Source of the DNA: an uncultured Gammaproteobacteria bacterium
GTDB taxonomy: Bacteria > Patescibacteriota > Microgenomatia > UBA8517
Assembly (NCBI GenBank): GCA_964366085.1
Contig: CAYISM010000001.1
Span: forward strand, 17,211-81,210
DNA: 64,000 bases
Direction: 5' to 3'
Made by a program: the position numbers and the translations under genes. Positions within the stretch are counted from its first letter, which is position 1; every line of letters starts with the position of its first letter. Positions 1 through 35,872 of the stretch are shown piece after piece. Under the pieces are notes generated by a model. It was not told where the DNA came from and did not search any database. It was given only the letters and a program-made list of their open reading frames with translations.

Positions 1-654
1 TAACTGTTTAACCGAGTATTTTTGCCGAAGAACAACAATCAAATAAATCGGAGCGAAGATGAGAAGTGAAGCTTTTATATAAAGTGACAAAGCAAAAACG
101 ACAAGTGACAAGGTTAACTTTTTTTGTAACAAAAAATAAAATGCTAGCAGTGAGAAAAAATTAACAATCGCATCGGTTTGCCCCCAAACTGCGGAGTTAT
201 ACCAAATGACTGGATTAACTAAAAAAATAGTTGCACCCAAGATACCAAGTTTCTCATCTTTATGGCTTTTAAGAAGTTTATATATTATGTAGGCAATCCC
301 CAAATCAGATAGAATTGAAGGAAGTTTTAAAAGCGCAGGATAAAGGTTGCTTTCAAAAAAGGTGATTATTCCCGAGGGAAATAACGGAATTTTTATATTA
401 ATCCACCAGAAAACTGAAAAAACAAATTCAAAAAGTTTTTCGATTCCGGCAAAAATATAAATTGTCCCCGGAGGCTGGTTGGGCCAGGTAAAGTTCCAAA
501 CATTCGTTGATGGAGCGAAGAATTTTTGAGGACCATATTGCCAGAACCTTATCCCCCAATCGATATGATTATTTATATCAGGGTGCCAAATAATAAAAGA
601 AATAACGAACCTGAATATAAGTGCCAAAAGCAATATTTTTATGATCTTTTTCAC
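1..654 (-). CDS. Polytopic membrane glycosyltransferase-like protein (GT-C superfamily), N-terminal 218 aa only; the gene runs off the window edge. GTG start at 652-654, immediately after the stop of the upstream gene.
   Basis: Manual translation of the minus strand is open from 654 to position 1. It has multiple TM helices. The motif NPVIWYNSAVWGQTDAIVNFFSLLAFYFL is paralogous to NPAVIYLSSSWGQIESLVGFFALASFLAL in the ORF at 4771-6051. Confidence 0.5.
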   Translation of the reverse strand, partial: MKKIIKILLLALIFRFVISFIIWHPDINNHIDWGIRFWQYGPQKFFAPSTNVWNFTWPNQPPGTIYIFAGIEKLFEFVFSVFWWINIKIPLFPSGIITFFESNLYPALLKLPSILSDLGIAYIIYKLLKSHKDEKLGILGATIFLVNPVIWYNSAVWGQTDAIVNFFSLLAFYFLLQKKLTLSLVVFALSLYIKASLLIFAPIYLIVVLRQKYSVKQL

Positions 655-2358
655 TTATTTTTTGGTAAAAAGGTAAAAGGCGGGTTCACCTGAAGGGTAG
701 GCAATCGCCTTAATGAGTTTTAAATTACCTGGTGTTCTTTCCGGTTCCATAATTAAATTGATTTTTACTTCCTTCTCGCTGGCTAAATAAAGCGTTTTTT
801 TATCAAGAACCTGACCCCAATCATAGAGTCCTCCTTTGGGTATTCCAAAATAGAATTTATCTATATGAGAAACCCTTCCAAATCCGGCTAAATCAACATC
901 GTTACCTATCGGAAATTCCTTCTGCCATTTGTCAGGTGAATATTCGTACCAAGCCGCAAAAAAAATCCAAGGTGGCTCGCTTGCGGTGGAGATGACAATT
1001 TTGTCATAGTCTTTATCTATTGCTTTAATCGAGGCAATCCCATCCCTAAATCCGGTGTGCCACCATCTTTCCGATTCCCAAGGATAATGTGCCCAATATT
1101 GATGCTGATATAAACCGAAACTGATTAAATATGCCATCAAATAACCTACGGCAAAAAGTTTTCCAGATCTACCTTTTAAAAGGTTGTAAGTCTCTAGTAC
1201 TCCGTAAGAAATTAAAAAAACTAAGGGAGGCAAAATTAAAATCAGACGAGTTGCGTGCCTTCCACCTTCTCTTGTTATTGCCGCAGGAATAACCCCGGCC
1301 AAAATCCAGAATATAATCAACCATTTCGTTTTTGCATCCTTGTAACGGCTGAAAAATAAAATTAAACCAAGAATGAGGGCAAGGGATTCTACTTTGTAAA
1401 ACTCACCTATACCTATCGAGTGGCGAAGGTTTAAATCTCCCTTTATAAAAAGGAAGTCTGTTGAAAAAGCTTGAAAATAGTTTTTAACTACTGCCTCTCC
1501 CCAAAAAGTAAACTTATTATGAATTATTCTATCTATTAATGTTGGTTTTAATCCCGTACCAGTTTCACCTCTAGTCCTTGCGTCATTCTGCCTTGCGGAA
1601 CCGACCTCTGACTCAGTCGTGGGATCGGTAAAAACACTTATATAACCAAATCTTTGAGCTCCGCCGCCAAGAAAAGTGCTTACGGCTATCGGACTACCGA
1701 CCACGGCCAAAGCAATAACTGCGTAAATTAAATATTTCTTGGAAAGGGAAAAAATTTCTTTTCGGTAGACAACAAACAAGAAAATTAATAAAAGCGGTGT
1801 AAAGAGCTTGGCGGTACTGTAAACCCAGGGAGTCAAGGCAAAACATACAGCCGAGACCCACATTAATTTTCCATTATTTTTAGTACTTTTAAAGAAAAAG
1901 TATAAGCCTGCAAGCAAGAAAAACAATAGTTCAGTTACTTCAAACCCGGCACGGCTATATTGAATGTGCCACGGTGAAAGGGCCAAAACACCTGCAGATA
2001 TTAATGCCAGTGATTTATTATTTGTTAATTCGCTGATTAATAAATAAAAAACAAAAATTCCAAGAATTCCAAAAATTGCGGCCGGGAGTCTCACGCCCAA
2101 AGGGGTTATACCAAAAATGGCAACGGTTGGAACCGCAGAATAAAGGTAAAGTGGCGTTCTCCATTCAGCCAAAGAATGAAAATGTATAGGTAAAAAATTA
2201 CCAGAATAATCTTTACCGGTCTTTAGGATTGAGTAGGCGTGATACCCAACGTCTAATTCGTCGCCAAAAAGGGAAACTGGTACTTTATCTAAACCCCAAA
2301 GCCGAAGTAGCGAAGCAAGAACAATAATTCCAACTAAAATAAGTTTTTTATACTTCAC
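655..2358 (-). CDS. ArnT/PMT_2-like GT-C membrane glycosyltransferase (GT39/GT83-like)
   Basis: 567 aa. N-terminal TM helix followed by a first-loop DE motif (FGDELDVGYHAYSILKTGKDYSG), about 11 predicted TMs, and a C-terminal soluble domain typical of lipid-linked-sugar-dependent GT-C enzymes. Confidence 0.65.
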   Translation of the reverse strand: MKYKKLILVGIIVLASLLRLWGLDKVPVSLFGDELDVGYHAYSILKTGKDYSGNFLPIHFHSLAEWRTPLYLYSAVPTVAIFGITPLGVRLPAAIFGILGIFVFYLLISELTNNKSLALISAGVLALSPWHIQYSRAGFEVTELLFFLLAGLYFFFKSTKNNGKLMWVSAVCFALTPWVYSTAKLFTPLLLIFLFVVYRKEIFSLSKKYLIYAVIALAVVGSPIAVSTFLGGGAQRFGYISVFTDPTTESEVGSARQNDARTRGETGTGLKPTLIDRIIHNKFTFWGEAVVKNYFQAFSTDFLFIKGDLNLRHSIGIGEFYKVESLALILGLILFFSRYKDAKTKWLIIFWILAGVIPAAITREGGRHATRLILILPPLVFLISYGVLETYNLLKGRSGKLFAVGYLMAYLISFGLYQHQYWAHYPWESERWWHTGFRDGIASIKAIDKDYDKIVISTASEPPWIFFAAWYEYSPDKWQKEFPIGNDVDLAGFGRVSHIDKFYFGIPKGGLYDWGQVLDKKTLYLASEKEVKINLIMEPERTPGNLKLIKAIAYPSGEPAFYLFTKK

Positions 2359-2373
2359 GTCTAAATTGTAACA

Positions 2374-3942
2374 TCAATCACGATAAAAAATATAAAAACT
2401 TTCGTTGCCGTCCGGTTCCCGGATGGTTTCGATTTTTTCAAAAAACCCATATTTGTCTCGTTTCCCCAAAACATGATCTGATCTAACCATCACCAAACTT
2501 TTTGCAGGAAATTTTGAAAAGTCTTCGGTGTTGAAGTCATAGGACCTTTGTGATAAGAAATTCGTTCTAAACTTTATCTGATAAAACTGAGAATAAAGAT
2601 CAATAAATGGAATATCGCTATCTAGGTAAACAGCCTTAACTTCCCGAACTTTGGTACTTTTTATTGCTGATTCAAAAGCCCCACCGATATCGTAATTAAA
2701 CCATGAATAGCTTCGACTGCGGTAAGAAGTAAAATAATCGGAGAGGAAGAGCCCGAACTGTAAGAAGGAAATAATCAAAATTCCATAAAAAAATGACCTT
2801 AACAATTGTTCCTTAGACTTAAGAATAAAATTAACCCCATACATTGAAAGAAGGATTGCAAAAGGAATTACAATAAGTCCTCGAGAAATTCTTTCTGGAT
2901 CGTTAACAATTGCCGGAGCAATTGGATAGGTCAAAAATCCAAAAAGAACTAATTTAGAAAACCTTTCCTTTTTATTAAAAACGGAGTAAAGAACACCAAA
3001 AGCTATTAAAAATGAAACTGGAAAAAGAAAGGTCCCAGCCTTACCGGTTGAATGAATTAGGCTCCTGTCCCCCGAAACAAATAAAATCTTTGGTCCCAAA
3101 TAGGTAAAATAATTAGAAACAAAACTTCCCAGTCTTTTAAAGTTAAATACGCCGAGATATCCTTTGGCTACATCAATCGTCGTATCAATAGAACTTATAT
3201 AACTCACTTGATTGAAAAGTGTGTCCGGGTGCTTAGTGATCCAGGGAATAAATAGAATAATTGGGATCAAAAACCCAATGACGAAGACCACAAAGTTAAT
3301 TTTTTTAGACCATAATTTTTTAAAGAGAAAAATAATGCTTGCAACAAAATATATCGGCATCATAATCTTTGCGGCGTGATAACTGTGTATTCCCATTCCT
3401 AACGTTATTCCCGAAAGAAAAATGTCAATTTTACTGTTACTATTTACAAACTTTCTTAAAAAAAATAACCAAAGAAGAACAAATAGGATCGGGTAAATAT
3501 TATCGAGAAGTAGTCGTGAGTTAATAAAAAGTACAGGAGTGGTTGCGAATAAGATTCCAGAAAGAAGAGCAAGTTTTTGACTATTAAAAATCTTCTTAAC
3601 TAAGAACATAACAAGAATTGTGCTCACGATTGCAATAAGTACAGAAGGGATCCGGATAGAAACTTCGCCAAGAGGCAAAAACTTAAGAATTAAGGCAGTT
3701 AAATAAACAACCACAGGTGTTGCCCAGAAGTTGCCTAGATGCCAAAAATAAAAAGGCAAAAAAATTCCGTAATAATCGTGTCCGGTTTTTGCGATCGAAT
3801 ATCCATTCAGAGAGAACATTAATTCATCCTGGTTCAGATGAACAGGAATTTTATCCAATTTGAACAAATAAAGTATACTAAAAAATAAAATTACCAGAAG
3901 ATACGGGATGATCCTTAATTTTTCTTCAAAATTTTTATCCAT
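2374..3942 (-). CDS. ArnT/PMT_2-like GT-C membrane glycosyltransferase, paralog of 655-2358
   Basis: First-loop motif NQDELMFSLNGYSIAKTGHDYYGIFLP matches the neighbouring gene. Polytopic. The likely start is the internal Met (MDKNFEEK); the longer ORF extends to 3990. Confidence 0.6.
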   Translation of the reverse strand: MDKNFEEKLRIIPYLLVILFFSILYLFKLDKIPVHLNQDELMFSLNGYSIAKTGHDYYGIFLPFYFWHLGNFWATPVVVYLTALILKFLPLGEVSIRIPSVLIAIVSTILVMFLVKKIFNSQKLALLSGILFATTPVLFINSRLLLDNIYPILFVLLWLFFLRKFVNSNSKIDIFLSGITLGMGIHSYHAAKIMMPIYFVASIIFLFKKLWSKKINFVVFVIGFLIPIILFIPWITKHPDTLFNQVSYISSIDTTIDVAKGYLGVFNFKRLGSFVSNYFTYLGPKILFVSGDRSLIHSTGKAGTFLFPVSFLIAFGVLYSVFNKKERFSKLVLFGFLTYPIAPAIVNDPERISRGLIVIPFAILLSMYGVNFILKSKEQLLRSFFYGILIISFLQFGLFLSDYFTSYRSRSYSWFNYDIGGAFESAIKSTKVREVKAVYLDSDIPFIDLYSQFYQIKFRTNFLSQRSYDFNTEDFSKFPAKSLVMVRSDHVLGKRDKYGFFEKIETIREPDGNESFYIFYRD

Positions 3943-4784
3943 TTTTGTCCAGATCTGATGATGAAGGCGATTACTAGCTGCTTTAACCAACCGTTATACC
4001 AAATGCCGGCTTCGGTTCGGTACCTCTGCGCCGATGGTAAAGTGTTGGGAATGTTTAAAAGTTTACGAAGTGGATAGATAAGAATTTCTAAAAAATTTCT
4101 GTATTTATCGGATGAGGTTTGCTGAGCGCTTTTACCATGGCTGTGGAGAATAATCAGGCCGGGGTGGTAAACAATTTTTAGCCCTGCTTGCCTGACCCGA
4201 CGGTTGAAATCCATGTCTTCGAAATACATAAACACTTCTTCGGTAAAAAGGCCCACTGTATCCAAGGTGCTCTTTGGAAAAAACATGCAAGCTCCTGAGA
4301 CAGAATTAACTTCAAGTGGATGGGTGGTAGAAGGGGTATATTTGTCGATAAAGTTTCCTTGGTTCAGCCAGTATTGGCGGATGGCTCCGATAATGCTTGC
4401 CTCCGGAAAGACCGAGCCTTGGGGAGTTCCGTCGGTATTGACAAATTTTGGCCCCATTACCCCGACATTAGGGTGGAGTTTAATAAATTGAACTGCTTCG
4501 GCAAAAAAATCGGGGGGGATTACGGTATCCGGATTTAAAATCAAAATAAATTCTCCTGTCGCTTTCTGCAAGCCTTGATTCCAAGCCCGGGGTAAACCGA
4601 TGTTTGAGTTGTGTTGGATGAAAATAATGCGCTTGTCTTTAGGAATAGACGGTTCTGAATTTGATGCATTGTCGATAAGAATAAGTTCCAGATTGAAATA
4701 TCCGGTACTAAGAACAGATTTGACACAGCGGGCAAAGGATTTGGCTACATTCCAGTTGACGATTATGACGCTAATTTTTTCCAT
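3915..4784 (-). CDS. GT2 family glycosyltransferase
   Basis: VIIVNWN...LILIDNAS, a GT-A fold with an N-terminal DxD-type signature. Confidence 0.8.
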   Translation of the reverse strand: MEKISVIIVNWNVAKSFARCVKSVLSTGYFNLELILIDNASNSEPSIPKDKRIIFIQHNSNIGLPRAWNQGLQKATGEFILILNPDTVIPPDFFAEAVQFIKLHPNVGVMGPKFVNTDGTPQGSVFPEASIIGAIRQYWLNQGNFIDKYTPSTTHPLEVNSVSGACMFFPKSTLDTVGLFTEEVFMYFEDMDFNRRVRQAGLKIVYHPGLIILHSHGKSAQQTSSDKYRNFLEILIYPLRKLLNIPNTLPSAQRYRTEAGIWYNGWLKQLVIAFIIRSGQKWIKILKKN

Positions 4785-6051
4785 AGTTTAAATACTCTTT
4801 GAGCATAGCAAAAAAACAAAAGACTACCAAAAAGGATAAAGTTCTTTCCACAAAATCCAAACTTAGCAAATTCACCAAAAACTCAATTCTCGGAAACCAC
4901 CACCAATGATAGAGATTTAATAGATAAAGGCCGCTTAATAAGTAGAAATATTTTCTGAGTTTAGGAATGTAGAATAACAGAAGCGGAAAGAATACAAATA
5001 TTGGGAAGAGATATCTTTCATGCATTCTGGGCAAAAATAGGAAGGCTGAAAGAGATATTAGGATTAGAGTAAAAAAGATATTTTTTCTTCTCCCAACATG
5101 AAGACTGAAAATGTAAAGGTAAAAAGGTAGAAACAGTATCCAACCCCACGCATAAAGCGGGACTCTTAAGAACATCGTTTTGTCAGAGATTCGATGTAAA
5201 CCCAGCAAAAAACCCCAAAAATTAAAACCGTTGAGATTTATAAAATGCAAATTTCCGGGTCCAAACATAAACTTTTTCCAATAATTTCTAATAGTCCAAA
5301 TAAAGTAATTGTGATCGGTAAATAGTGTCCCAAAAATTATCAAAACGAATATAACGACTGTAGTAGCAATAAGAATTTGTTTAAATTTCGGTTTGGTTTT
5401 AAAAAATTCAAAAAAATAAATTGGAAGCAAGGGTAACATTGTAGCTTTGGTCATTAGAGAAAACACCATAGAAATGGTTGATTTTAGATATTTTCTAGAG
5501 ATCAACGCCAGAAAACTGGCCAAAGCAAAAAAACCAACCAACGATTCTATCTGTCCCCAGGAAGAAGATAAGTAAATTACCGCCGGATTAAACAGATAAA
5601 ACGATGCTGCTACCTTTCCTCCGAACTCGCTTCTTCTCTTCACGAATTTGTAAATTAGATATCCAATTGCCAAGTCTGCGATGATTCCGGGTATTTTATA
5701 AAGAGAAAGTTGCCCCTCGCTTTCGAACCAGGGTATAAATTTAGATGGAAAGTAGGCAAAGGAGATGTTCAACCACCAAAAAAATCCAAACAACCAACTC
5801 CAGATTGTACGAACGAACAAAAACAAAATGGTTGATAAGGGAGGATATTCTGGTAAAGCGTAGTTTCCGAAGTTCAGCCAATCGTAGTATCCTTTCAGTC
5901 CGAATTCTTGAGCATATCTTCCCCAAATCAGATTCGTATTAAGGTCTGAATGGAATGAAAGGGGTACCAAAACTATTCTTATAATAACTGCTATAAGCAG
6001 TAACTTTGGAAATGATATTTTTTTAACTAAATTTAGCAAATATAGCTTCAT
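4771..6051 (-). CDS. Polytopic membrane glycosyltransferase-like protein (GT-C superfamily), paralog of the partial gene at 1-654
   Basis: 426 aa, more than 10 TMs, with a conserved NPAVIYLSSSWGQIESLVGFFAL segment. Confidence 0.5.
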   Translation of the reverse strand: MKLYLLNLVKKISFPKLLLIAVIIRIVLVPLSFHSDLNTNLIWGRYAQEFGLKGYYDWLNFGNYALPEYPPLSTILFLFVRTIWSWLFGFFWWLNISFAYFPSKFIPWFESEGQLSLYKIPGIIADLAIGYLIYKFVKRRSEFGGKVAASFYLFNPAVIYLSSSWGQIESLVGFFALASFLALISRKYLKSTISMVFSLMTKATMLPLLPIYFFEFFKTKPKFKQILIATTVVIFVLIIFGTLFTDHNYFIWTIRNYWKKFMFGPGNLHFINLNGFNFWGFLLGLHRISDKTMFLRVPLYAWGWILFLPFYLYIFSLHVGRRKNIFFTLILISLSAFLFLPRMHERYLFPIFVFFPLLLFYIPKLRKYFYLLSGLYLLNLYHWWWFPRIEFLVNLLSLDFVERTLSFLVVFCFFAMLKEYLNYGKN

Positions 6052-23198: not shown

Positions 23199-23684
23199 TT
23201 ACCTGACTGGAGAGTTTATATGATAGTGAACAAAAACTAAATGGTCGCGAAATCTAATTTCTTCTTCGGCAACATCCACGGGAATTTTTCGAACGGACTT
23301 CAAAATCTTATATCTATATATCCAATCACCTTCCTTTAATTCCGCATCCTCATCCAACCTTGTCTTATCTCCCAACTGATTAACAAAAAAGACCAGCTTT
23401 CCAACTACATCTTTACCAGTTAGTCCCAATTCTTTCAGACCTTCTTCATCCAACGAACCTCCTGCATATACCCTAATCGCTTTTTCTCCATTCACCGCTT
23501 CTACTAACTCTTGCCCGCCTCCGTTTTGGTGAGCAGCCCATTCGTCATGATATCTTCCTTCAGGACCTTCGTAATCGCTTGTCTCCAAGTTGAAATCGGC
23601 CCGGACAGTTTTTCTGCGGATACTATTACCAGCATAGCCCTCACTAAGACCCTTTGCCAAAATCGCCTTGATTTCTTTTTCCAT
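23199..23684 (-). CDS. Hypothetical soluble protein
   Basis: 161 aa ORF. It has its own upstream TGTGCTAGAATT promoter-like motif. No family recognised. Confidence 0.5.
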   Translation of the reverse strand: MEKEIKAILAKGLSEGYAGNSIRRKTVRADFNLETSDYEGPEGRYHDEWAAHQNGGGQELVEAVNGEKAIRVYAGGSLDEEGLKELGLTGKDVVGKLVFFVNQLGDKTRLDEDAELKEGDWIYRYKILKSVRKIPVDVAEEEIRFRDHLVFVHYHINSPVR

Positions 23685-28942: not shown

Positions 28943-30100
28943 ATGAAAAGAATTCTTAAAAACCTTATTTTTATTTCTCTCCTCTCCCTCATCCCAACGG
29001 TAATTATATGGATACCGTTTTTTCTGAAGTTAAAAAGTATTTGGGGAATTCCGCTTCCGAATGGCGGAATGGCAACCATAGTTTCAAATTATGACGGACC
29101 ACTTTTTATTGTGATCGCAAAAACTTTCTATAACATAGCGCAAATTAAAGCGAATTATTCATTTCCTCTCCCTACTGAATATTATGCAGCTCATTTTCCT
29201 TTGTTTCCTGTCATTATCAAAATTTTTGCCTTTATTTTTGGTTTCCCGTATGGAATGTTGGTTGCAACTTTAATATCCTCAATTCTTGCAATTTATTTTT
29301 TTAACAAATTAATAAGAAGATATGTCGAAGAAAAGGAGGCTCTTTGGATAACTTTTGTCTTTTGCCTGTTTCCTGCGAGATGGCTTGTCGTTCGTTCAGT
29401 AGGAAGCGCTGAACCGTTATTCCTGGCTGCAATAATTGCTTCGGTTTATTATTTTCAATCAAAGAAATATTGGCAGGCGGGAGTTTGGGGGGCTATAGCA
29501 CAACTTACAAAATCCCCGGGAATTCTTCTTTTTATTGCATACCTTGGAGTAATAATGCTTCCACAATTTAAACGTCTTGCAACAGAAAAATTCCAGATTT
29601 GGGCAAGAGAGTTAAATTGGAAAGCTTATCCAATACTATTTATTCCAATTTCACTTCTGGGAATTTTTGTTTTATATAAGTTCACCTTTAACGATTTTTT
29701 TGCCTATTTCCATTCGGGCGACAATGTACATTTAATGTTTCCGCCATTTTCAATATTTAACTCCAGCCAATCTTGGGTGGGCACGTTTTGGCTTGAAGAA
29801 GTAATTTTTGTTTATCTTTTTGGAATTTTGGGGCTACTTCAATTGATCAAACAACGGGAAAATATACTCGCCGCTGTTGTTGGAGTATTTTTTACTTCCT
29901 TACTTTTCGTCGCACACAGAGATTTGATCAGATATTCGCTCCCGATCGTTCCATTTTTATTTGTCGCATTTGCAAATGTTATTATCAAAAAGGAATTTAA
30001 AATTGTTATGGCAATACTGGCGCTTCCGATCTTTCTTTTCTCTATCTCCTACATCTCCCAAAATGTAATGCCCATCGGGAACTGGTCCCCATTCCTCTAA
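28943..30100 (+). CDS. Polytopic membrane protein (possible GT-C-like glycosyltransferase)
   Basis: 385 aa, about 10 TMs, plus strand. A TGCTAATAT extended -10-like element lies 8 nt upstream of the ATG. Confidence 0.4.
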   Translation: MKRILKNLIFISLLSLIPTVIIWIPFFLKLKSIWGIPLPNGGMATIVSNYDGPLFIVIAKTFYNIAQIKANYSFPLPTEYYAAHFPLFPVIIKIFAFIFGFPYGMLVATLISSILAIYFFNKLIRRYVEEKEALWITFVFCLFPARWLVVRSVGSAEPLFLAAIIASVYYFQSKKYWQAGVWGAIAQLTKSPGILLFIAYLGVIMLPQFKRLATEKFQIWARELNWKAYPILFIPISLLGIFVLYKFTFNDFFAYFHSGDNVHLMFPPFSIFNSSQSWVGTFWLEEVIFVYLFGILGLLQLIKQRENILAAVVGVFFTSLLFVAHRDLIRYSLPIVPFLFVAFANVIIKKEFKIVMAILALPIFLFSISYISQNVMPIGNWSPFL

Positions 30101-30124
30101 AAATGTATAATCGGCTTCATTCAG

Positions 30125-30574
30125 ATGAGCAAAGAAAATACCAACATACCATACACAGCTTGGAGAGAACGACAAGCTCGACTGTCGTTAGTAGGGAAAC
30201 TATGTTTAAGCTGTAAAGCTGTAACCTTCCCGCCTCGCAATATTTGTTCGAACCCAGACTGTACAGAAAAAACCCGTCTTAAAGAATTTAAACTTAGTGG
30301 AAAAGGAGAAATAATCTCCTACACTACCATCTCCAATCCGAAATATGCACCAGAAGGATTCGACGAAGATTTCGTCCCATACCACTTAGTACTTGTTAAA
30401 CTTTATGAGGGACCGATTCTTTTTACCCGTTTCACAGATTTTGATCCTAAACAAAAAATCCAAGAAGGAATGAAAGTTGAGTTAATAACACGAATTTGGA
30501 AAAAGAATGGCAGGAAAGGACCAATTGAATATGGTTATGCGGTAAGATCAATATTTATACCCAAAATACTTTGA
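30125..30574 (+). CDS. DUF35-family protein (N-terminal rubredoxin-like Zn ribbon plus OB fold)
   Basis: CLSCKAVTFPPRNICSNPDC four-Cys ribbon followed by LSGKGEIISYTTIS...PYHLVLVKLYEGPILFTRF, which matches the archaeal/bacterial DUF35 pattern. Confidence 0.55.
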   Translation: MSKENTNIPYTAWRERQARLSLVGKLCLSCKAVTFPPRNICSNPDCTEKTRLKEFKLSGKGEIISYTTISNPKYAPEGFDEDFVPYHLVLVKLYEGPILFTRFTDFDPKQKIQEGMKVELITRIWKKNGRKGPIEYGYAVRSIFIPKIL

Positions 30575-30646: not shown

Positions 30647-31786
30647 TTACTTCTTCCCAAACCTCCAGGTCTTCCAGATAACGAGATTATACATAAGATA
30701 GTTGTAGGGAAGAACCAAAAAGAGAACTATAAAAGGAAGAAGAATTTGTCTATATTGCGGACCGAGAATTGAAACACCAATGGTTCCTGCGGCTGTCTGA
30801 ATGATTAGAGCGCCTGCGGAAGTCAAATTAAACTGCAAAAACTTATAAATTAGCTTGCCAACTCCTTTTATCTTTTCATTCTTAAAAGTCCAGAGATTGT
30901 TTAGTGTAAAGTTGCTTATAATAGCCAACTCTGTTGATCCGGCCCAAGAAAGCCACTCGACCAAATTCATTTTTGAGAACAAATAAAGAAATAGAGCATT
31001 TATTACATATCCAATAAATCCTACTATGCCAAATTTAAAAAATCGCGAACGAAAAAAATCCAGTGCTCTGGTTTTTACTACAAACCAAAACGTTTTGATC
31101 GTACTTTGTACTCCTGGCATTTTGGAAAAGCCTTTCCACCTTTCTTTGAAATTAAGAGGTATCTCAATGATCTTTACGCCCTCCTTTTTGGCGTAATAAA
31201 GGAATGAAATCTGAAATGAATAAGTCTTTAGTTCGGTAATTTTGTCTTTAACTTTCAAAAAAACCCAGGGTTTTAATGCCCTATATCCCGTTGTCCAATC
31301 GTGAATTTTGTTATCTAACATCATTATTCGAATAAAAATGTTTCCTCCAACTGATAGAATTTTTCTTGTTATCCCCCAAAATTTAGGAATTGACCCTCCC
31401 TTCATATATCTTGATCCGATGACAAGATCCGCCCCTTCGTCGATTTTTTCCAAAAATTCGGGGATTAAATCAGGATCGTGCTGAAAATCGGCATCAAATT
31501 CAAAAAGCAAATCTGCCTTAATCTTATCTACTGCATATGTCATCGCCTTAATGTATGCACCACCCAACCCAACTTTTTCTTTATTCAGAAGGAGATAGAC
31601 ATTTTTATACTTCTTCATGTAATTTCTCACTATCTCATAGGTTTTATCCGGAGAAGTATCGTCAACTACCAAAATGTTCATGTCCCACTTTTCGGGAACT
31701 TTTTTAAAGACTTCTTGCAATGTATCGAGCAAAAGCCCGATATTTTCAGCTTCGTTATAGGTAGGAATAATTATTATGACTTTCAT
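30647..31786 (-). CDS. Polyprenyl-phosphate sugar synthase (Dpm1-like GT2) fused to a C-terminal GtrA-like membrane domain
   Basis: IIIIPTYNEAENI...ILVVDDTSPDKT...FEFDADFQHDP, then a C-terminal 4-TM region FGIVGFIGYVINALFLYLF. Confidence 0.8.
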   Translation of the reverse strand: MKVIIIIPTYNEAENIGLLLDTLQEVFKKVPEKWDMNILVVDDTSPDKTYEIVRNYMKKYKNVYLLLNKEKVGLGGAYIKAMTYAVDKIKADLLFEFDADFQHDPDLIPEFLEKIDEGADLVIGSRYMKGGSIPKFWGITRKILSVGGNIFIRIMMLDNKIHDWTTGYRALKPWVFLKVKDKITELKTYSFQISFLYYAKKEGVKIIEIPLNFKERWKGFSKMPGVQSTIKTFWFVVKTRALDFFRSRFFKFGIVGFIGYVINALFLYLFSKMNLVEWLSWAGSTELAIISNFTLNNLWTFKNEKIKGVGKLIYKFLQFNLTSAGALIIQTAAGTIGVSILGPQYRQILLPFIVLFLVLPYNYLMYNLVIWKTWRFGKK

Positions 31787-31920
31787 ACAGGATTAACTTT
31801 ATACCAATTTTACCTTAATTTACAATATAAAATAGTAAAATTGGGGATCATAGCCATCGCAGTTTGCTTGCAAACTGGAGTATGATGGATATATCAAACT
31901 ATACTGATAAACAAGCTATG

Positions 31921-32619
31921 AAAATAGATATCCTAACTCTCTTTCCCGAAATGTTTAAAGGACCGTTTAGCGAAAGCATTCTTAAGAAAGCCCAAGAAAA
32001 AGGAATTATCGATATAAAAGTCTATAATATCCGCGACTGGGCCAAAGACAAACACAAGATGGCAGACGATAGACCTTACGGGGGTGGACCCGGAATGGTT
32101 TTAATGATCGAACCGATCGATCGGGCCATAGCTGAACTCACAACTCACAACTTACAACTTACAACCCGAGTAATTTTACTCGACCCTGCGGGAAAAACTT
32201 TCAACCAAAAGGAGGCTGAAAGATTGGTTAAATATGACCACATAATCTTAATCTGTGGACATTATAAAGGGATTGATGAACGGATTCGCGAACATTTAGT
32301 CGATGAGGAGATTTCGGTTGGGGACTTTGTAGTTACCGGAGGTGAAATTCCGGCAATGATTGTTGTTGATGCAACCGTAAGACTCATCCCTGGAGTCATC
32401 GGCAAAGAAGAATCTTTAAAAAAAGAATCCTTCTCGGACTTTGACGAACCGGGGGTTCCAAGGCTTTTGGGTTTTCCTCAATACACCCGTCCCGAAGAAT
32501 ATAAAGGCTGGAAAGTTCCCGAGATGCTTTTGGGTGGAAATCATAAAGAAATCTTAAGGTGGAGAATAAAAGTGGCAACCAAAAGAACCAAAGAGCGAAG
32601 GCCGGATTTACTCAAATAA
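31921..32619 (+). CDS. trmD: tRNA (guanine37-N1)-methyltransferase
   Basis: MKIDILTLFPEMF...YGGGPGMVL...LICGHYKGIDERI...VGDFVVTGGEIPAMIVVDA. Confidence 0.9.
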   Translation, partial: KIDILTLFPEMFKGPFSESILKKAQEKGIIDIKVYNIRDWAKDKHKMADDRPYGGGPGMVLMIEPIDRAIAELTTHNLQLTTRVILLDPAGKTFNQKEAERLVKYDHIILICGHYKGIDERIREHLVDEEISVGDFVVTGGEIPAMIVVDATVRLIPGVIGKEESLKKESFSDFDEPGVPRLLGFPQYTRPEEYKGWKVPEMLLGGNHKEILRWRIKVATKRTKERRPDLLK

Positions 32620-33523
32620 GTTTATTTATTATTTCGTCCGTTGTACTAAAATTCATATCCAGAACCTCTTCTGTTTTTCTTGGATCAAGCCCTCCCTTTA
32701 AAGGGTATCTTCTCGGGTTACTTACTGTGCCCTTCTCAAAATCAATTTCTTTACCCAGTGCTTTCTTTATAAATTTAGAAATTAACTTATACGGTGTAGT
32801 CGTATCTGGAGAGCTTACATGGAAAACACCGGTTAATTTATTTTCAATTATTCTTCTTAATGCCTCGCATGCTTCATCTATAAAAGTTATAGAAACCTGC
32901 TGGTCGGTAAAAAGTGGATATAATTTGTCTTCTTTTTTGAATTTCTCCAAAGGGAACCTTAAGTAGTCTAATTTCTTTTTAAATTCTTTTCTGACTGGAT
33001 AAATAATTCTGACAATCGTTGCGTTATCTCCGAGTCTTTCTTGGACTAACCTTTCGGCTTCCGCCTTTGTAAAACCATACCAAGTAAGTTTATCGGGGTT
33101 GGTTTCTGGGAGATGGTCTTCGCTATATGGACCCGGGTCATCGGGCGAGCCACTAAAAACCATATCGGTGGAAATTTGTATAAATCGCGTTTTTTCAAGG
33201 TCAATTGCGTCAAGTATATTTCTTACTCCTTCAACATTTATCCTCCAACAATCACCTCCCTCATTGTCCCTTTGTTTCTCTTCATCGTTTACATTAGTGT
33301 CCGCTGCGAAATTAATAACAACATCCGGCTTTTCTCTACTAATAAATTCTTTAACCGCTTTGGCGTCGGTTATGTCTAGTTCAGAATGTGAAGGTGTCAC
33401 AAATTCTCCGTCAAAAAGTTCCAAAAATCTTTGACCTACCAATCCCGATCCACCCAGAATTAATACTTTTCCGACATTGAGTCTTTCCTTTGATTCTTTT
33501 GTTGTTACTGCCAGTTCTACCAT
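32612..33523 (-). CDS. rmlD: dTDP-4-dehydrorhamnose reductase
   Basis: KVLILGGSGLVGQ Rossmann motif; RmlD-like short epimerase/reductase; last gene of the rml operon. Confidence 0.8.
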   Translation of the reverse strand: MVELAVTTKESKERLNVGKVLILGGSGLVGQRFLELFDGEFVTPSHSELDITDAKAVKEFISREKPDVVINFAADTNVNDEEKQRDNEGGDCWRINVEGVRNILDAIDLEKTRFIQISTDMVFSGSPDDPGPYSEDHLPETNPDKLTWYGFTKAEAERLVQERLGDNATIVRIIYPVRKEFKKKLDYLRFPLEKFKKEDKLYPLFTDQQVSITFIDEACEALRRIIENKLTGVFHVSSPDTTTPYKLISKFIKKALGKEIDFEKGTVSNPRRYPLKGGLDPRKTEEVLDMNFSTTDEIINKLI

Positions 33524-34107
33524 TATTTAAATTTGTCCGGAAAAGTTTCTCTTAAAGATTTTGCGTTCAAATCCTTTTCCGCAACAATCGGATTTTTAAT
33601 TGGCCACTTGATATTCAGATCTTCATCGAACGGTTTTATTGCAAAAGAAGAGCCGGGTGTCCAATAAGCATTGACTAAGTAAAAGTAATGAACGGGGCCT
33701 TCGATTGCACAGATAGAATTTCCGATACCTTTCGGCAGAAACAAAGCCCTCTTTGGTAAATTCCCGCCAGTATTGTCAAAAAGAAATTCTTCGTATTGTC
33801 CAAAAGTTGCGCTTTCCGGCCTTAGGTCAACAACAGGCACCCACATTTTACCAGTTGCCGAGTAAACAAGTTTGTCCCATCTTTCGGCATGAATTCCCCT
33901 TATGGCCCCTGTTTCAGACATCGAGTGGTTCATTTGAACAGGCAAAAACTCAATTCCTTTTTCTTTGAGGAGAACTTCTCGCCAAACCTCTCTGAAAAAA
34001 CCTCTTTCATCTGAAACTGCAGATCTTTCAATTATTAAAACACCTTTAATTTTTCCTTCAGTAATTATAAATTCTGGAATCTTAATGCCAATCTTGGTTT
34101 CTGTCAT
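33523..34107 (-). CDS. rmlC: dTDP-4-dehydrorhamnose 3,5-epimerase
   Basis: Cupin-type RmlC motifs (GAIRGIHAERWDKLV, FLPKGIGNS). Start taken at the internal Met MTETKIG. Confidence 0.8.
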   Translation of the reverse strand: MTETKIGIKIPEFIITEGKIKGVLIIERSAVSDERGFFREVWREVLLKEKGIEFLPVQMNHSMSETGAIRGIHAERWDKLVYSATGKMWVPVVDLRPESATFGQYEEFLFDNTGGNLPKRALFLPKGIGNSICAIEGPVHYFYLVNAYWTPGSSFAIKPFDEDLNIKWPIKNPIVAEKDLNAKSLRETFPDKFK

Positions 34108-35144
34108 TTTCTTTCCCTTGCCCTTAGATTCTTTTGAACCTCCGGGTCGACAATCGGACGGCCTTCGCGCAAAGGCTTCCACCACCACTTATTTTCCTTA
34201 TACCATTTTACCGTCGCCGGAAGCCAGTCTTCAAATTTATGTTCCGGTTTCCAACCCAATACTCTTTTTATCTTAGAAGAATCAATTGCGTATCGTGAAT
34301 CGTGTCCCAATCTATGCTCGATATGGGTAATCCAAGATTCGTCCTTGCCCATCAATTTTAAAATTTCGCGGGTTATCTGGAGATTACTTCTTTCGGAGTT
34401 TCCGCCCACACAAAATGTCTGACCGATAATTTTTTCATCTTTCAGGGCGGCGTGGATAATCGTATCGATTGCGCGGCAGTGATCAAGCACGTAAATCCAA
34501 TCCCGAACATTTTCCCCTTTACCCATCAAGGGAACCTTCTTCCCCAAAATAAGATTAGTTATAAATCTGGGAAGAAGTTTTTCTGTGTCCTGCCAAGGCC
34601 CATAGTTATTCGAAGTATTGGTAATCGTTACAGGAAGGCCATAAGTTCTGTGCCAAGCCCGAACCATGTGATCAGCCGAAGCTTTTGCGGCAGAGTAAGG
34701 ACTATGCGGATTATAAGGACTTTTTTCGTTAAATTTTAAGTCCGGCCGATTTAAGGGAAGCTCTCCGAAAACTTCATCGGTTGAGACGTGATGAAAAAGT
34801 TTTACCCCCGCACCCAGCGCATTTTGCAGCATGACCTGGGTTCCGACTACATTTGTTTGCACAAAAACATCCGGGCCCAAAACACTTCTATCGACATGGG
34901 TTTCCGCCGCGAAATGGGCAACCACATCAATTCCTCTAATTGCTCTTTTTACAACTTCGGGATCACAAATATCGCCTTTAATAAACTTAACCTTCTTGCC
35001 TTCAATATCTTTTAAATTCTCTCTGTGGCCCGCATAAGTTAATTTATCAAGAACTACAATTTCATCTTTGGGGTATTTTTTGTGCCAGTAGTGGACAAAA
35101 TTGCTTCCGATAAATCCCGCCCCGCCGGTTACAAGTATTTTCAT
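34104..35144 (-). CDS. rmlB: dTDP-glucose 4,6-dehydratase
   Basis: MKILVTGGAGFIGSNFV...HFAAETHVDRS...YSAAKASADHMV (YxxxK). Confidence 0.9.
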   Translation of the reverse strand: MKILVTGGAGFIGSNFVHYWHKKYPKDEIVVLDKLTYAGHRENLKDIEGKKVKFIKGDICDPEVVKRAIRGIDVVAHFAAETHVDRSVLGPDVFVQTNVVGTQVMLQNALGAGVKLFHHVSTDEVFGELPLNRPDLKFNEKSPYNPHSPYSAAKASADHMVRAWHRTYGLPVTITNTSNNYGPWQDTEKLLPRFITNLILGKKVPLMGKGENVRDWIYVLDHCRAIDTIIHAALKDEKIIGQTFCVGGNSERSNLQITREILKLMGKDESWITHIEHRLGHDSRYAIDSSKIKRVLGWKPEHKFEDWLPATVKWYKENKWWWKPLREGRPIVDPEVQKNLRARERK

Positions 35145-35872
35145 ATTTTTACACCGTTCTTCCCGGCCCAATAGGCGCTGGCCTCAACAAGTGCATCAAA
35201 GGTACCGGCATCCCGCCAATAACCTTTTAGTTCCTCCCATTTCATTGTTCCTTCCTTTATGTAGAAATTTTGTATGTCAGTTATCTCCAGCTGGCCTCTT
35301 TTTGAGGGCTTAAGCTTTTTTGCGACTTGGAAACATCTGTTGTCAAAGATATAAAGTCCGGTTGAGGCATATTCTGAGGGTGGATTTTTGGGCTTTTCGA
35401 CAATTCCCACAATCTTTTTCTTGTCCTTTTTATCAAATATCGGAACTCCAAAGCGCTCGGGATCAGGAACCTTCTTAACAAACATTACCGAGCCTTTCTC
35501 AAAACGGGAAACCGCTTTTGAAATATCCGCATCGGTAGTGTTATCTCCGAGAATGACAATCACGGGTTCCCCTCCGGCAAAATCTTCGGCAACCTTAAGA
35601 GCATCCGAAATGCCTCCGGATGGATTTTCTTGATATCCATATTCGAGATGATTTAGACCAAGCTCTTTACCGTTTTTCAAGACCTGAATAAATTGTCCGG
35701 AATGGGGACCGCTAGCTATTACTATAATATCTGTGATTCCTGCCTTGACCAAAGTTTGAATCGGATAAAAAATCATAGGGCGATCGTAAATGGGAAGAAG
35801 ATGCTTGTTAGTCGCGTAAGTAAGCGGATAAAGACGTGTTCCCAAACCCCCTGCGAGAATTACGCCTTTCAT
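35141..35872 (-). CDS. rmlA: Glucose-1-phosphate thymidylyltransferase (short form)
   Basis: MKGVILAGGLGTRLYPLTYATNKHLLPIYDRPMIFYPIQTL. Confidence 0.85.
   Translation of the reverse strand: MKGVILAGGLGTRLYPLTYATNKHLLPIYDRPMIFYPIQTLVKAGITDIIVIASGPHSGQFIQVLKNGKELGLNHLEYGYQENPSGGISDALKVAEDFAGGEPVIVILGDNTTDADISKAVSRFEKGSVMFVKKVPDPERFGVPIFDKKDKKKIVGIVEKPKNPPSEYASTGLYIFDNRCFQVAKKLKPSKRGQLEITDIQNFYIKEGTMKWEELKGYWRDAGTFDALVEASAYWAGKNGVKI

Follow-up and report, generated by a model that had tools for sequence, protein, structure and literature searches.

What does a bacterium with a tiny genome make from at least 36 kb of tightly packed genes for lipid-linked sugars, and is such a locus peculiar to a single organism? 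The DNA comes from the 0.1 um fraction of Hainich groundwater, and the host belongs to Candidatus Woesebacteria (Microgenomates, CPR); the Wzx protein of the locus is 60-70% identical to its counterparts in Woesebacteria MAGs. The window is the whole 64-kb stretch that was analysed. Judged from sequence, the gene products would assemble sugars on lipid carriers, and attachment would take place on the outer side of the cell membrane. We argue, at a probability of about 0.7, that this is a lineage-conserved locus for cell-envelope glycan assembly, in which a lipid-phosphate-linked, rhamnose-containing glycan is made inside, flipped, and then transferred and elaborated outside by GT-C enzymes.

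Gene content and layout

Searches of Pfam, NCBIfam and the PDB, together with two structure predictions, identified 13 GT-C membrane glycosyltransferases (12 complete and one cut by the window start) and eight GT2 enzymes, accompanied by a MOP/Wzx flippase, a SAM methyltransferase, a GT4 gene and rmlDCBA (Table 1). The original prediction had named the 13 GT-C and eight GT2 genes, the flippase, the methyltransferase and rmlABCD, and each was found where it had been placed; the GT4 gene, an exonuclease and a 161-aa orphan had been overlooked. All genes had been assigned to one strand, whereas 29 of 32 lie on the minus strand and three on the plus strand: M13, the DUF35-like gene and trmD. Packing is operon-like, and no intergenic gap is longer than 77 nt. 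Two unrelated genes, the exonuclease and the orphan, are inserted; neither has a counterpart in related loci, and the orphan matched nothing in Pfam or NCBIfam. The frequent 4-bp overlaps are clear at four junctions and vary elsewhere with start-codon choice. The rhamnose genes do follow the glycosyltransferase block, but trmD intervenes. The cluster extends beyond the start of the window, where there is at least one additional GT-C gene: the window holds the N-terminal 218 aa of M01, which is 423 aa long on ENA contig L071, and beyond it lies another PMT_2-like gene.

Table 1. Features of the glycan locus, in window coordinates
Gene	Position	Strand	Assignment	Evidence
M01	1..654 (partial)	-	Gpi18/GT87/ALG3-like GT-C	Pfam PIG-U 27.7 bits (above gathering cut-off), ALG3
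M02	655..2358	-	PMT_2-family GT-C, 567 aa	Pfam PMT_2 1.3e-10
M03	2374..3990	-	PMT_2-family GT-C, 522-538 aa	Pfam PMT_2 1.5e-13
G1	3915..4784	-	Cytoplasmic GT2	Pfam Glycos_transf_2 7.8e-22
M04	4771..6051	-	Gpi18/GT87-like GT-C, M01 paralog	Pfam: only EpsG, 24 bits, below gathering cut-off
G2	6023..6913	-	GT2	Pfam Glycos_transf_2 1.1e-20
Methyltransferase	6914..7564	-	SAM-dependent methyltransferase	Pfam Methyltransf_11 1.2e-23; syntenic in related loci
M05	7565..9118	-	Divergent PMT_2-like GT-C	Pfam PMT_2 19 bits, below cut-off
M06	9115..11610	-	YfhO-family GT-C, 831 aa	Pfam YfhO 4.2e-15, above cut-off
GT4	11555..12610	-	Cytoplasmic GT4 (GT-B fold), conserved core	Pfam Glycos_transf_1 1.1e-23
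G3	12577..13338	-	Cytoplasmic GT2, conserved core	Pfam
G4	13342..14259	-	Cytoplasmic GT2, conserved core	Pfam
G5	14256..15179	-	Cytoplasmic GT2, conserved core	Pfam 2.6e-21
M07	15202..16965	-	Unannotated GT-C(A)-fold family	
Wzx	16904..18400	-	Wzx-type MOP flippase	Pfam Polysacc_synt_3 6.7e-56, 190 bits
M08	18412..19878	-	PMT_2-family GT-C	Pfam PMT_2 1.1e-7
M09	19885..21597	-	PTPS_related (DUF2298-like) GT-C, conserved core	Pfam PTPS_related 28.9 bits, above cut-off
M10	21601..23163	-	PMT_2-family GT-C, conserved core, FADEA motif	Pfam PMT_2 7.5e-15, PMT 4.5e-10
Orphan	23199..23684	-	161-aa orphan ORF, outside conserved system	
G6	23739..24491	-	GT2 without TM segments, resembling polyprenyl-phosphate sugar synthases; conserved core	
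M11	24488..26038	-	PMT_2-family GT-C, partner of G6	Pfam PMT_2 1.3e-9; synteny
Exonuclease	26028..26588	-	DEDD (RNase T/DnaQ-like), unrelated to glycosylation	Pfam RNase_T 1.5e-19
M12	26585..28198	-	PMT_2-family GT-C, partner of G7	Pfam PMT_2, PMT; G7-M12 synteny
G7	28180..28890	-	TM-less GT2, polyprenyl-phosphate sugar synthase-like	
M13	28943..30100	+	Gpi18-like GT-C fold, 385 aa, divergently transcribed	
DUF35-like	30125..30574	+	DUF35/ChsH2-type OB-fold and zinc-ribbon protein	Pfam OB_ChsH2_C, zf-ChsH2
G8	30647..31786	-	DPMS-type polyprenyl-phosphate hexose synthase	Pfam Glycos_transf_2, GtrA_DPMS_TM
trmD	31864..32619	+	tRNA (m1G37) methyltransferase, housekeeping	Pfam tRNA_m1G_MT 1.7e-59
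rmlD	32612..33523	-	dTDP-L-rhamnose synthesis	Pfam RmlD_sub_bind
rmlC	33523..34188	-	dTDP-L-rhamnose synthesis	Pfam dTDP_sugar_isom
rmlB	34104..35171	-	dTDP-L-rhamnose synthesis	Pfam GDP_Man_Dehyd/Epimerase
rmlA	35141..35872	-	dTDP-L-rhamnose synthesis	Pfam NTP_transferase

Glycosyltransferase families and sugar supply

On HMM, PDB and fold evidence together, each of the 13 membrane proteins belongs to the GT-C superfamily; HMM searches, which might have moved most of them to non-glycosyltransferase families, reassigned none. PMT_2 exceeds its gathering cut-off in M02, M03, M08, M10, M11 and M12, and the two membrane proteins that lack Pfam matches have predicted GT-C folds. An acidic residue lies about 10-25 residues past TM1 in every one of the 13; this first-loop residue is invariant within the M07, M13, M10 and M09 families (D38 and E39 in the M10 family), and M02, whose best NCBIfam match is a sub-threshold Agl23, has a GDELD motif after TM1. 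The original prediction spoke of paralogous multiplicity. The GT-C genes are indeed many, but the paralogs in the window share only 22-39% identity or no detectable similarity, and they are ancient members of at least six distinct families. M03 and M02 share 27% identity across 452 aa and M01 and M04 share 34-36%, while BLAST links M05 to M11 (9.6e-25) and M12 (3e-15). A role for M04 as a Wzy polymerase was rejected, given the sub-threshold EpsG match and its Gpi18/GT87-like homologs, which bear GT87, PMT_2 or ALG3 domains, with PF09594 (GT87), PF13231, PF05208 and PF26314 among their Pfam entries, and are labelled 'Gpi18-like mannosyltransferase' by JGI.

As predicted, three of the GT2 enzymes are Dpm1-like: G6, G7 and the GtrA-fused G8 are nearest to ArnC, DPMS and GtrB in the PDB, and they carry versions of the DxDxQ motif that is conserved in polyisoprenyl-phosphate GT2 enzymes (PMC10821137). 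The top PDB matches of G6 are ArnC (5.3e-16), DPMS and GtrB, and its top NCBIfam match is PgfS; it has a DMDQ variant of the motif, and its gene overlaps M11 by 4 bp. Those of G7 (motif DADGQ) are ArnC (2.5e-16), GtrB and DPMS. G8 (motif DADFQ) combines a GT2 domain with a GtrA/DPMS domain of 4 TM helices, and its whole length aligns with P. furiosus DPMS (5mlz, E 7.8e-42); apart from this fused domain, no free GtrA-type flippase was seen. Among the other GT2 proteins, G3 and G5 are 34% identical, and the top NCBIfam model for both G1, which has no TM segment, and G4 is a sub-threshold 'rhamnosyltransferase' (for G4, TIGR01556 at 76 bits). Wzx, with about 12-15 TM helices, matches the NCBIfam models for MOP flippase, O-glycosylation flippase and TuaB, all sub-threshold. 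No GT2, GT-C or Wzx protein of the locus reaches an NCBIfam equivalog cut-off that could assign its sugar or acceptor specificity.

RmlB scores 433 bits against an equivalog cut-off of 365, and rml models are the top NCBIfam matches of RmlA, RmlC and RmlD, yet below their cut-offs. Use of rhamnose by the locus is rated plausible and no higher, because trmD lies between the rml operon and the block and because, in most relatives, no rml operon was seen within 10 kb on either side of Wzx.

A core shared across Microgenomates

The core order G6–M10–M09–Wzx–M07–G5–G4–G3–GT4 recurs as conserved synteny in Woese-, Davies-, Blackburn- and Gottesmanbacteria, and also in the complete genome CP066693.1. 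Such synteny across dozens of related genomes rules out chance; the locus is not idiosyncratic, and its layout is common to the whole bacterial class. Among 35 loci with full flanks, M07, M09 and M10 are each present in 32, G6 in 30, G5 in 27 (median identity 57%), G3 in 24, G4 in 23 and GT4 in 17 (orthologs at 40% identity or more). The original prediction had proposed comparing the presence of individual GT-C genes. The core proved to be kept, while outer GT-C genes are gained and lost between loci: M08 has a homolog in a minority (5/35), and M09 reaches three copies in some relatives. A fixed core with a varying GT-C periphery points to a core glycan that is conserved but elaborated differently from lineage to lineage, in agreement with the earlier idea of a variable glycan or of several targets. 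The cytoplasmic GT4/GT2 assembly line beside Wzx had been given too little weight.

What is M07, which found no match in Pfam, NCBIfam or PDB sequence searches? Its gene lies directly downstream of Wzx in 48 of 52 loci, and in one cluster representative (P0402) Wzx, an extra domain and M07 form a single polypeptide. The protein has about 11 TM helices and a 145-aa extracytoplasmic C-terminal domain, and its model has a GT-C fold nearest to AglB/STT3, C-terminal domain included, although M07 lacks WWDYG. By the positive-inside rule, the parts of M07 that lie outside the membrane include D50, E160, E281, D288, a GTPWNTIQ motif and the C-terminal domain. Fold and synteny make M07 a candidate en-bloc transferase or polymerase; a membrane enzyme family named in none of the databases sits within a class-wide layout.

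A proposed assembly pathway and its precedents

In the pathway that we propose, RmlABCD would supply dTDP-L-rhamnose, and G6, G7 and G8, as members of DPMS/ArnC/GtrB-like families, would attach individual sugars to polyprenyl phosphate on the inner membrane face. G5, G4, G3 and GT4, encoded beside the flippase, would assemble an oligosaccharide on a polyprenyl-phosphate carrier, together with the more distant G2, G1 and the methyltransferase, for which the glycan is probably the substrate.

How would this glycan be primed? The window lacks an initiating phosphoglycosyltransferase, a Wzy and an LCP ligase; Bac_transf, MraY/WecA-type, Wzy_C and LCP domains were found neither in any ORF of the window nor within 10 kb on either side of Wzx in CP066693.1. 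Because neither the window nor a syntenic relative has a phosphoglycosyltransferase, we propose that one of the DPMS-like enzymes may make the primer, as a sugar linked through a monophosphate. A classical WecA/WbaP-type initiating enzyme could instead be encoded elsewhere, in which case the carrier would be diphosphate-linked. It also counts against the scheme that neither G6 nor G7 has a TM segment and that the locus has no gene for a GacJ/WpsB-like activator.

Wzx would then move the lipid-linked glycan, lipid-linked monosaccharides or both, and M07 would transfer or polymerise the flipped unit. The other GT-C enzymes, at least 12 (PMT_2, YfhO, PTPS-related and Gpi18/GT87-like), would draw on polyprenyl-P-sugar donors to lengthen or decorate the glycan, and may also O-glycosylate surface proteins rich in Ser, Thr and Pro. 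The product is most likely a rhamnose-containing wall or surface glycopolymer, and the original picture of an outer-face envelope or protein glycan, dependent on lipid-linked sugars and probably containing rhamnose, remains a reasonable one, as far as we infer.

The scheme has experimentally studied precedents. Protein glycosylation of Ser/Thr-rich regions is carried out by GtrB with a YfhO-type GT-C, and by the Pgf system (PMC12041528). The proposed monophosphate-linked primer resembles haloarchaeal Dol-P glycans and lactococcal PSP; the latter is C55-P-linked and initiated by the TM-less, DPMS-like WpsA, after which the Wzx-type WpsG flips it and GT-C enzymes act (PMC10821137).

Glycosyltransferase content of the block

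The region at 1-35872 is filled nearly end to end by 32 ORFs, with intergenic gaps of at most 77 nt and frequent overlaps between neighbours. A Pfam scan of every ORF in this region yielded the inventory tabulated below, which also includes eight GT2 genes (G1-G8), and the gene classes named in the original prediction proved to be accurately annotated. The prediction had placed the genes on a single strand, which is not quite the case: 29 of the 32 ORFs lie on the minus strand. Likewise, the rmlABCD operon is real, its four families being present and contiguous (Pfam and NCBIfam), but it does not follow immediately on the glycosyltransferase block, as a plus-strand trmD gene lies between the two. 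The cluster extends past the window start, where M01 reaches its full length of 423 aa and is followed by a PMT_2-like gene 39% identical to M02. The remainder of the window (36-64 kb) holds housekeeping genes (FtsEX, RF2, SecA, an M23 peptidase, MgsA and others), and a tRNA scan of the whole window found no tRNA genes. The idea of a horizontally acquired island is unsupported, since GC content runs from 0.34 to 0.43 throughout without a step and synteny is conserved.

Table. Positions of the glycan-locus genes and of other features discussed in the text
Feature	Position	Strand	Basis or remark
M01, PIG-U/ALG3-like	1-654		Pfam; truncated at window start
PMT_2 protein	655-2358		Pfam, above gathering cut-off
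PMT_2 protein	2374-3990		Pfam, above gathering cut-off
M04	4771-6051		paralog of the 1-654 gene, 34-36% identity
MT, class-I SAM methyltransferase	6914-7564		Pfam
PMT_2 protein	7565-9118		below cut-off; BLAST 1e-24 to 24488-26038, 3e-15 to 26585-28198
M06, YfhO	9115-11610		Pfam
GT4	11555-12610		Pfam
M07	15202-16965	-	polytopic, without Pfam match
Wzx, MOP flippase	16904-18400	-	Polysacc_synt_3, 190 bits (cut-off 23)
PMT_2 protein	18412-19878		Pfam, above gathering cut-off
M09, PTPS_related	19885-21597		Pfam
PMT_2 protein	21601-23163		Pfam, above gathering cut-off
Orphan, 161 aa	23199-23684	-	interspersed in block
G6, GT2	23739-24491		Pfam
PMT_2 protein	24488-26038		Pfam, above gathering cut-off
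DEDD/RNase T-like exonuclease	26028-26588	-	interspersed in block
PMT_2 protein	26585-28198		Pfam, above gathering cut-off
G7, GT2	28180-28890		Pfam
M13	28943-30100	+	polytopic, without Pfam match
DUF35-type OB-fold protein	30125-30574	+	interspersed in block
G8, GT2	30647-31786		Pfam
rmlD, rmlC, rmlB, rmlA	32612-35872		past trmD (+ strand)
RmlA	35141-35872	-	short form
LTD secreted protein	39071-40057	-
LytR_C-domain protein	46488-47174	-
AAA_5 and VWA gene pair	48072-53809	-
Fic-domain protein	54183-55705	-

Some of the tabulated genes are of other kinds. The exonuclease gene overlaps its neighbours by 4 bp and 11 bp inside the glycosyltransferase operon; both it and the orphan are absent from all 69 related loci and are unique to this genome. 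A DUF35/ChsH2-type protein, with a zinc ribbon and an OB fold, sits between M13 and G8. In the archaeal mevalonate pathway, DUF35-type proteins act as scaffold for the thiolase/HMG-CoA synthase complex, and by analogy a link to carrier-lipid synthesis is conceivable here, though no thiolase/HMGCS gene is adjacent. Outside the block, a gene pair for AAA_5 (MoxR/dynein-like, 1,169 aa) and VWA (743 aa) proteins adjoins a gene for a Fic-domain protein with a Phd/YefM-like antitoxin gene upstream, and neither has any relation to the glycan locus.

How secure is the assignment of the membrane proteins M01-M13 to the GT-C type? Hydropathy analysis finds 7-13 hydrophobic segments in each, in line with polytopic proteins (at least 8 TM), and AF2 folds M07 and M13 into helical bundles; all 13 were placed in the GT-C fold. 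Nine (M01, M02, M03, M06, M08, M09, M10, M11 and M12) match a GT-C family HMM at its curated threshold. The HMM score of M05 is sub-threshold, yet the protein is connected by BLAST to M11 and M12, while M07 and M13 have no HMM match in the Pfam scan. Homologs of M04 bear GT87 (PF09594), PMT_2, ALG3 and PF26314 domains, with the JGI name 'Gpi18-like mannosyltransferase', so that M04 and its paralog M01 are GT-C proteins. A D/E or DE/DD motif follows shortly after TM1, in the first extracytoplasmic loop, in 13 of 13, and its acidic residue is invariant in the family alignments (D50 in M07, D51 in M13, D38/E39 in M10, D39/D40 in M09). Because this motif occurs in every one, alongside the HMM, homolog and fold evidence, the prediction of about 13 GT-C enzymes was right; HMM searches that might have reassigned the membrane proteins moved none of the 13 to a non-glycosyltransferase family.

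These paralogs are only distantly related. Pairwise identities within the window are 22-39% or undetectable by BLAST, and profile comparison (hhalign) joins the M13 family to the M10 family with 76% probability and M09 to M10 with 30%. Recent tandem duplication can be rejected as the source of the GT-C multiplicity on account of these low identities and the conservation of orthologs across candidate phyla; the multiplicity is therefore ancient.

Putative lipid-sugar synthases, the flippase and a conserved core

Three of the GT2 proteins, G6, G7 and G8, find their top PDB matches in ArnC, Pyrococcus furiosus DPMS and GtrB. The alignment of G8 to DPMS 5mlz (E 7.8e-42) spans the whole protein and takes in the four-helix GtrA/DPMS membrane domain, and the prediction of three Dpm1-like synthases, one of them GtrA-fused, is thus upheld. 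The DxDxQ motif, a metal/NDP-binding motif conserved in polyisoprenyl-phosphate GT2 enzymes (PMC10821137), reads DADGQ in G7 and DADFQ in G8, with the variant DMDQ in G6, and was not found in G1-G5. The best NCBIfam models for G6-G8 are PgfS, ArnC, Dol-P-hexose transferase, AglJ and PpgS, all below threshold; against curated equivalog models the three proteins score just 36-84 bits, with cut-offs of 370-529 bits. Sequence comparison therefore supports a place for G6-G8 in the polyprenyl-phosphate glycosyltransferase class, a specific enzyme and sugar being without support.

For the rhamnose genes, RmlB scores 433 bits, above its equivalog cut-off of 365, and the rml models are also the best for RmlA (229 bits), RmlC (115) and RmlD (106), yet below the cut-offs. 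With 243 aa RmlA is short, covering only the first ~235 of 286 positions of the RfbA model (229 vs 361 bits), and RmlC and RmlD are divergent in like manner. The best NCBIfam model for both G1 and G4 is a 'rhamnosyltransferase' subfamily, again below threshold.

Wzx has about 12-15 hydrophobic segments and the domain of a MOP flippase. Its presence, together with weak matches of M04 and M12 to the Wzy-like EpsG family, could point to a classical Wzx/Wzy-dependent capsule or O-antigen-like pathway in which one of the multi-span proteins is the Wzy polymerase. We consider this very improbable. The EpsG scores are under the gathering cut-off, and M04 homologs are GT87, PMT_2, ALG3 and 'Gpi18-like' proteins, for which reasons M04 and M01 were rejected as the missing polymerase. 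Moreover, no Bac_transf, Glycos_transf_4, Wzy_C, Wzz or LCP domain was found in any ORF of the 64-kb window, nor were the first four found within 10 kb on either side of Wzx in the complete relative CP066693.1. The set of phosphoglycosyltransferase, Wzy and chain-length regulator is thus missing from the window and from those flanks of the relative's Wzx, and the 64 kb contain no O-antigen polymerase or export component.

Proteins identical to those of the locus occur on Hainich H43 groundwater 0.1-um metagenome contigs, and searching the GTDB species representatives with Wzx gave 69 loci, of which those of Candidatus Woesebacteria are nearest (60-70% Wzx identity), ahead of those of Davies-, Blackburn-, Gottesman-, Shapiro- and Curtissbacteria. 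The conserved order is M13 (opposite strand), G7, M12, M11, G6, M10, M09, a variable segment, Wzx, M07, G5, G4, G3, GT4, M06, M05, MT, G2, G1, and it holds in the complete genome CP066693.1 (916,571 bp). Within it, the nine-gene core G6-M10-M09-Wzx-M07-G5-G4-G3-GT4 is strictly conserved in order over class-level divergence in CPR. Among the 35 loci having full 10-kb flanks, homologs of M07, M09 and M10 were each found in 32, of G6 in 30, of G5 and G3 in 27, of G4 in 24, of GT4 in 22 and of M08 in 5. M09 is triplicated in certain genomes, and M02-like genes lie on either strand. Many of the related loci (L002, L003, L008, L021, L024, L029-L031, L036, L037 and others) come from MAGs titled 'uncultured Gammaproteobacteria', 'Pseudomonadales', 'Clostridia' or 'Ignavibacteriaceae' (TPA_asm 'binchicken'/SRP assemblies). 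These titles look mislabelled, because the MAGs carry a Microgenomates-type locus whose gene order is unchanged and whose proteins are 50-70% identical.

One could also read the locus as several independent two- or three-component modules, each a GT2 synthase with its GT-C enzyme and each with a different target, in which case Wzx would be a GacK-like flippase for polyprenyl-P-monosaccharides alone. The adjacent, overlapping pairs G7-M12 and M11-G6 are kept in relatives, the peripheral GT-C genes have been gained, lost and duplicated independently, and monosaccharide-P-C55 is the presumed substrate of GacK-type Wzx proteins (PMC10821137). However, with 14 or more GT-C genes there are just three synthases, the core order has been kept over class-level divergence, and the four conserved soluble glycosyltransferases beside Wzx would have no role in pure monosaccharide decoration. 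We regard independent modules as doubtful.

The Wzx-linked M07 family and the fate of the glycan

In 48 of 52 loci, M07 is encoded on the strand of Wzx and starts no more than 2.2 kb downstream of it. M07 has no Pfam or NCBIfam match, its more than 1,450 homologs are all annotated 'hypothetical', and profile searches of PDB sequences, both full-length and C-terminal, gave no matches at E<=10. The structural model (pLDDT 84.8, pTM 0.88), with about 11 predicted TM helices, is nevertheless unmistakably a GT-C(A) fold. Its top Foldseek matches are yeast and human STT3, DPY19, AglB, PglB and AftA (E down to 1.4e-9), and the membrane and C-terminal domains are predicted to be nearest to AglB/STT3, an OST-type architecture of GT-C(A) plus an extracytoplasmic C-terminal domain. 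By the positive-inside rule, the conserved acidic loops are predicted to face outward.

Is M07 then an STT3 protein? The WWDYG motif (WWD(Y/W)G) is missing from the C-terminal alignment of the family, in which a T-Y-P-F-D stretch comes closest to it. Compared by hhalign with the aligned C-terminal domains of eukaryotic STT3 proteins, M07 reaches a probability of 1%, and there is no Pfam STT3 match. Lacking both the motif and detectable sequence homology, M07 falls outside the STT3 family, and true membership in STT3/PglB/AglB was rejected. So was the notion of a merely divergent PMT_2 protein, for which hhalign against the locus's own M10 family gives 0.3%. Though outside the STT3 family, M07 may work like an OST. 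The family comprises 1,583 clusters at 50% identity without Pfam, NCBIfam or source annotation, and on these grounds merits a family definition.

In Daviesbacteria, Gottesmanbacteria and relatives, a signal-anchored extracytoplasmic domain of ~450 aa precedes M07 or is fused to it (loci L030-L068, e.g. L034:11565-12908; proteins P0362, P0381 and P0383). This domain, weakly similar to DUF3863 and to the uncharacterised protein PDB 3lm3, was not found in Woesebacteria or in the present window. A Wzx-M07 'Rosetta stone' fusion in the family members of ~1,000-1,160 aa was mostly rejected, the N-terminal 450-600 aa being DUF3863-like and not Wzx. The sole representative that also contains Wzx is P0402 (1,639 aa), in which Wzx, the DUF3863-like domain and M07 form one protein.

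Taken together, the inventory fits the logic of extracytoplasmic lipid-carrier-dependent glycosylation, which we take to be the likeliest mode of action. In the lactococcal PSP pathway, the TM-less DPMS-like WpsA primes C55-monophosphate, soluble glycosyltransferases extend the unit, a Wzx-type flippase exports it, and the PSP is polymerised and then attached to rhamnan by GT-C-fold proteins (PMC10821137). Considering that no phosphoglycosyltransferase occurs in the 64 kb or near Wzx of the complete relative, this pathway is the best experimentally grounded precedent. The DPMS/GtrB-like enzymes would load single sugars onto polyprenyl phosphate, the soluble GT2 and GT4 enzymes, fed dTDP-rhamnose among other donors, would build a lipid-carried oligosaccharide, and the MOP flippase would export it. 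The GT-C enzymes, with their acidic loops outward, would act outside the membrane, and M07 would take the step right after flipping, either transfer or polymerisation, as the PSP precedent and the haloarchaeal Dol-P-based Agl pathway of the same logic suggest. In this scheme a conserved core glycan would come from the fixed core genes, to be extended or decorated by the products of the variable PMT_2, YfhO and Gpi18-like genes. The acceptor may be a wall polymer, a protein or a lipid. Alternatively, some of the GT-C enzymes may act in protein O-glycosylation, like streptococcal GtrB/PgtC2 and Pgf (PMC12041528).

Could protein be the main target? M07 would then act as an OST-like enzyme, transferring the oligosaccharide flipped by Wzx en bloc to surface proteins such as S-layer proteins or pilins, and Ser/Thr/Pro-rich linkers would be O-glycosylated by the PMT_2 and YfhO enzymes. 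The layout would resemble archaeal Agl, with AglJ/AglD-like synthases, an AglR-like flippase, an AglS-like GT-C, AglB, the methyltransferase AglP and Agl11-14 as Rml, and G8 aligns in full length to archaeal DPMS. The best NCBIfam models are AglJ, AglG, Dol-P-hexose transferase, PgfS, an O-glycosylation flippase and Agl23, but all scores are far under the cut-offs. Proven protein O-glycosyltransferases exist in the PMT_2 and YfhO families (PMC12041528), and Pro/Ser/Thr-rich linkers do occur in secreted proteins of the window; against this, M07 has neither WWDYG nor profile similarity to STT3 or any PDB sequence, and no gene for a target protein was found inside the locus. Protein as the main acceptor is possible but not probable. 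The linkers belong to the LTD (lamin-tail-domain) protein, where a Pro-rich stretch is 60% Ser/Thr (PSPTSTSTPTPSLTPTSTPTPTKTPTPSPT), and to the LytR_C-domain protein (NSPSTPTPTPT); by analogy, both are candidate O-glycosylation acceptors of the type modified by streptococcal GT-C enzymes.

A bolder proposal makes M07 the founder of an AglB/STT3-like GT-C family, spread throughout Microgenomates and not recognised before, that together with its constant partner Wzx would transfer a pre-assembled polyprenyl-P-oligosaccharide en bloc, either to protein or to the wall. Such an OST pathway of archaeal style in bacteria would use a recognition element other than WWDYG and would lie outside the bacterial PglB lineage of Campylobacterota and Desulfobacterota. 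We hold it to be speculative and, on balance, unlikely.

The number of GT-C genes also recalls the mycobacterial arabinogalactan/LAM machinery, which is rich in them. The product might accordingly be a membrane-anchored lipoglycan like LM/LAM, built on a glycolipid primer almost wholly outside the membrane by successive GT-C enzymes using polyprenyl-P-sugars. M01, M04 and M13 are Gpi18/GT87 (PimE)-like, the structural matches include AftA, AftB, AftD, Emb and PimE, and the window has no LCP ligase. Those matches are no better than the ones to other GT-C proteins, however, and PimA/PimB-type and acyltransferase genes were not found in the locus. The conserved cytoplasmic GT2/GT4 block and Wzx point instead to a pre-assembled, flipped unit. 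We consider a lipoglycan quite improbable.

Significance and comparison with known systems

The components are all of known superfamilies, and their logic is that of three- or four-component and Wps- or Agl-like systems. What sets the locus apart is its size and dense packing (a single operon-like block with at least 14 GT-C genes, ~4% of a genome below 1 Mb), the strict conservation of the nine-gene core over class-level CPR divergence, and the large unannotated, AglB/STT3-like GT-C(A) family, without WWDYG, that is locked to Wzx. The conservation pattern and the M07 family are what the present analysis adds to the accurate annotation of the original prediction. CPR bacteria are thought to live attached to other cells, and their genomes are roughly 0.8-0.9 Mb (802,554, 901,682 and 916,571 bp in complete Woesebacteria relatives). 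That at least 36 kb (~4% of the genome) is given over to glycan assembly genes kept throughout the class implies a central role for a surface glycan in CPR biology, for instance in keeping the envelope intact, attaching to hosts or evading phages. The locus offers a concrete, clonable gene set of three lipid-sugar synthases, a flippase and an unannotated GT-C partner. In the literature on CPR/Patescibacteria with GT-C, STT3 or glycosylation we found no description of it and passing remarks at most, on a Microgenomates genome with '29 glycosyl transferases' (PMC7143001) and on possible rhamnose wall polysaccharides in Patescibacteria (PMC11809585).

Archaeal N-glycosylation (Haloferax Agl; AglB/STT3) shares Dol-P-hexose synthase-like GT2s, soluble GT2s, a methyltransferase, a MOP flippase, PMT_2-like GT-C enzymes and Rml with the locus, and in the model of M07 the membrane and C-terminal domains are nearest to AglB/STT3. 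M07 is shorter than AglB/STT3, however, and no NCBIfam Agl cut-off is reached. [quoted passage not shown]

The three-component GtrA/GtrB/GtrC-type systems of extracytoplasmic glycosylation, including CsbB/YfhO/GtcA, GtrB/PgtC2 and Pgf (PMC7389260, PMC11127046, PMC12041528), share the combination of a GT2 polyprenyl-P-sugar synthase and a GT-C transferase, seen here in the pairs G7-M12 and M11-G6, as well as a YfhO member (M06). GtrA is present here solely as the domain fused to G8, GT-C enzymes far outnumber synthases, and such modules form part of a bigger conserved assembly machinery that also comprises Wzx and soluble glycosyltransferases. The lactococcal Rha-CWPS/PSP system (WpsA/B, WpsC-F, the Wzx-type WpsG, the GT-C proteins WpsH/I/J and RmlABCD) and streptococcal GacI/J/K/L (PMC10821137) share with the locus a TM-less DPMS-like GT2 acting on polyprenyl monophosphate, soluble glycosyltransferases that extend the lipid-linked unit, a Wzx-type flippase followed by GT-C enzymes for extracytoplasmic polymerisation or transfer, and dTDP-rhamnose genes. 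In contrast to these, the locus has no GacJ/WpsB-like activator and no TagO/Rgp rhamnan ABC-transporter module; it has at least 14 GT-C genes where they have 2-3, its Wzx-adjoining M07 belongs to a different, unannotated GT-C family, and its host is a CPR bacterium with a genome of less than 1 Mb.
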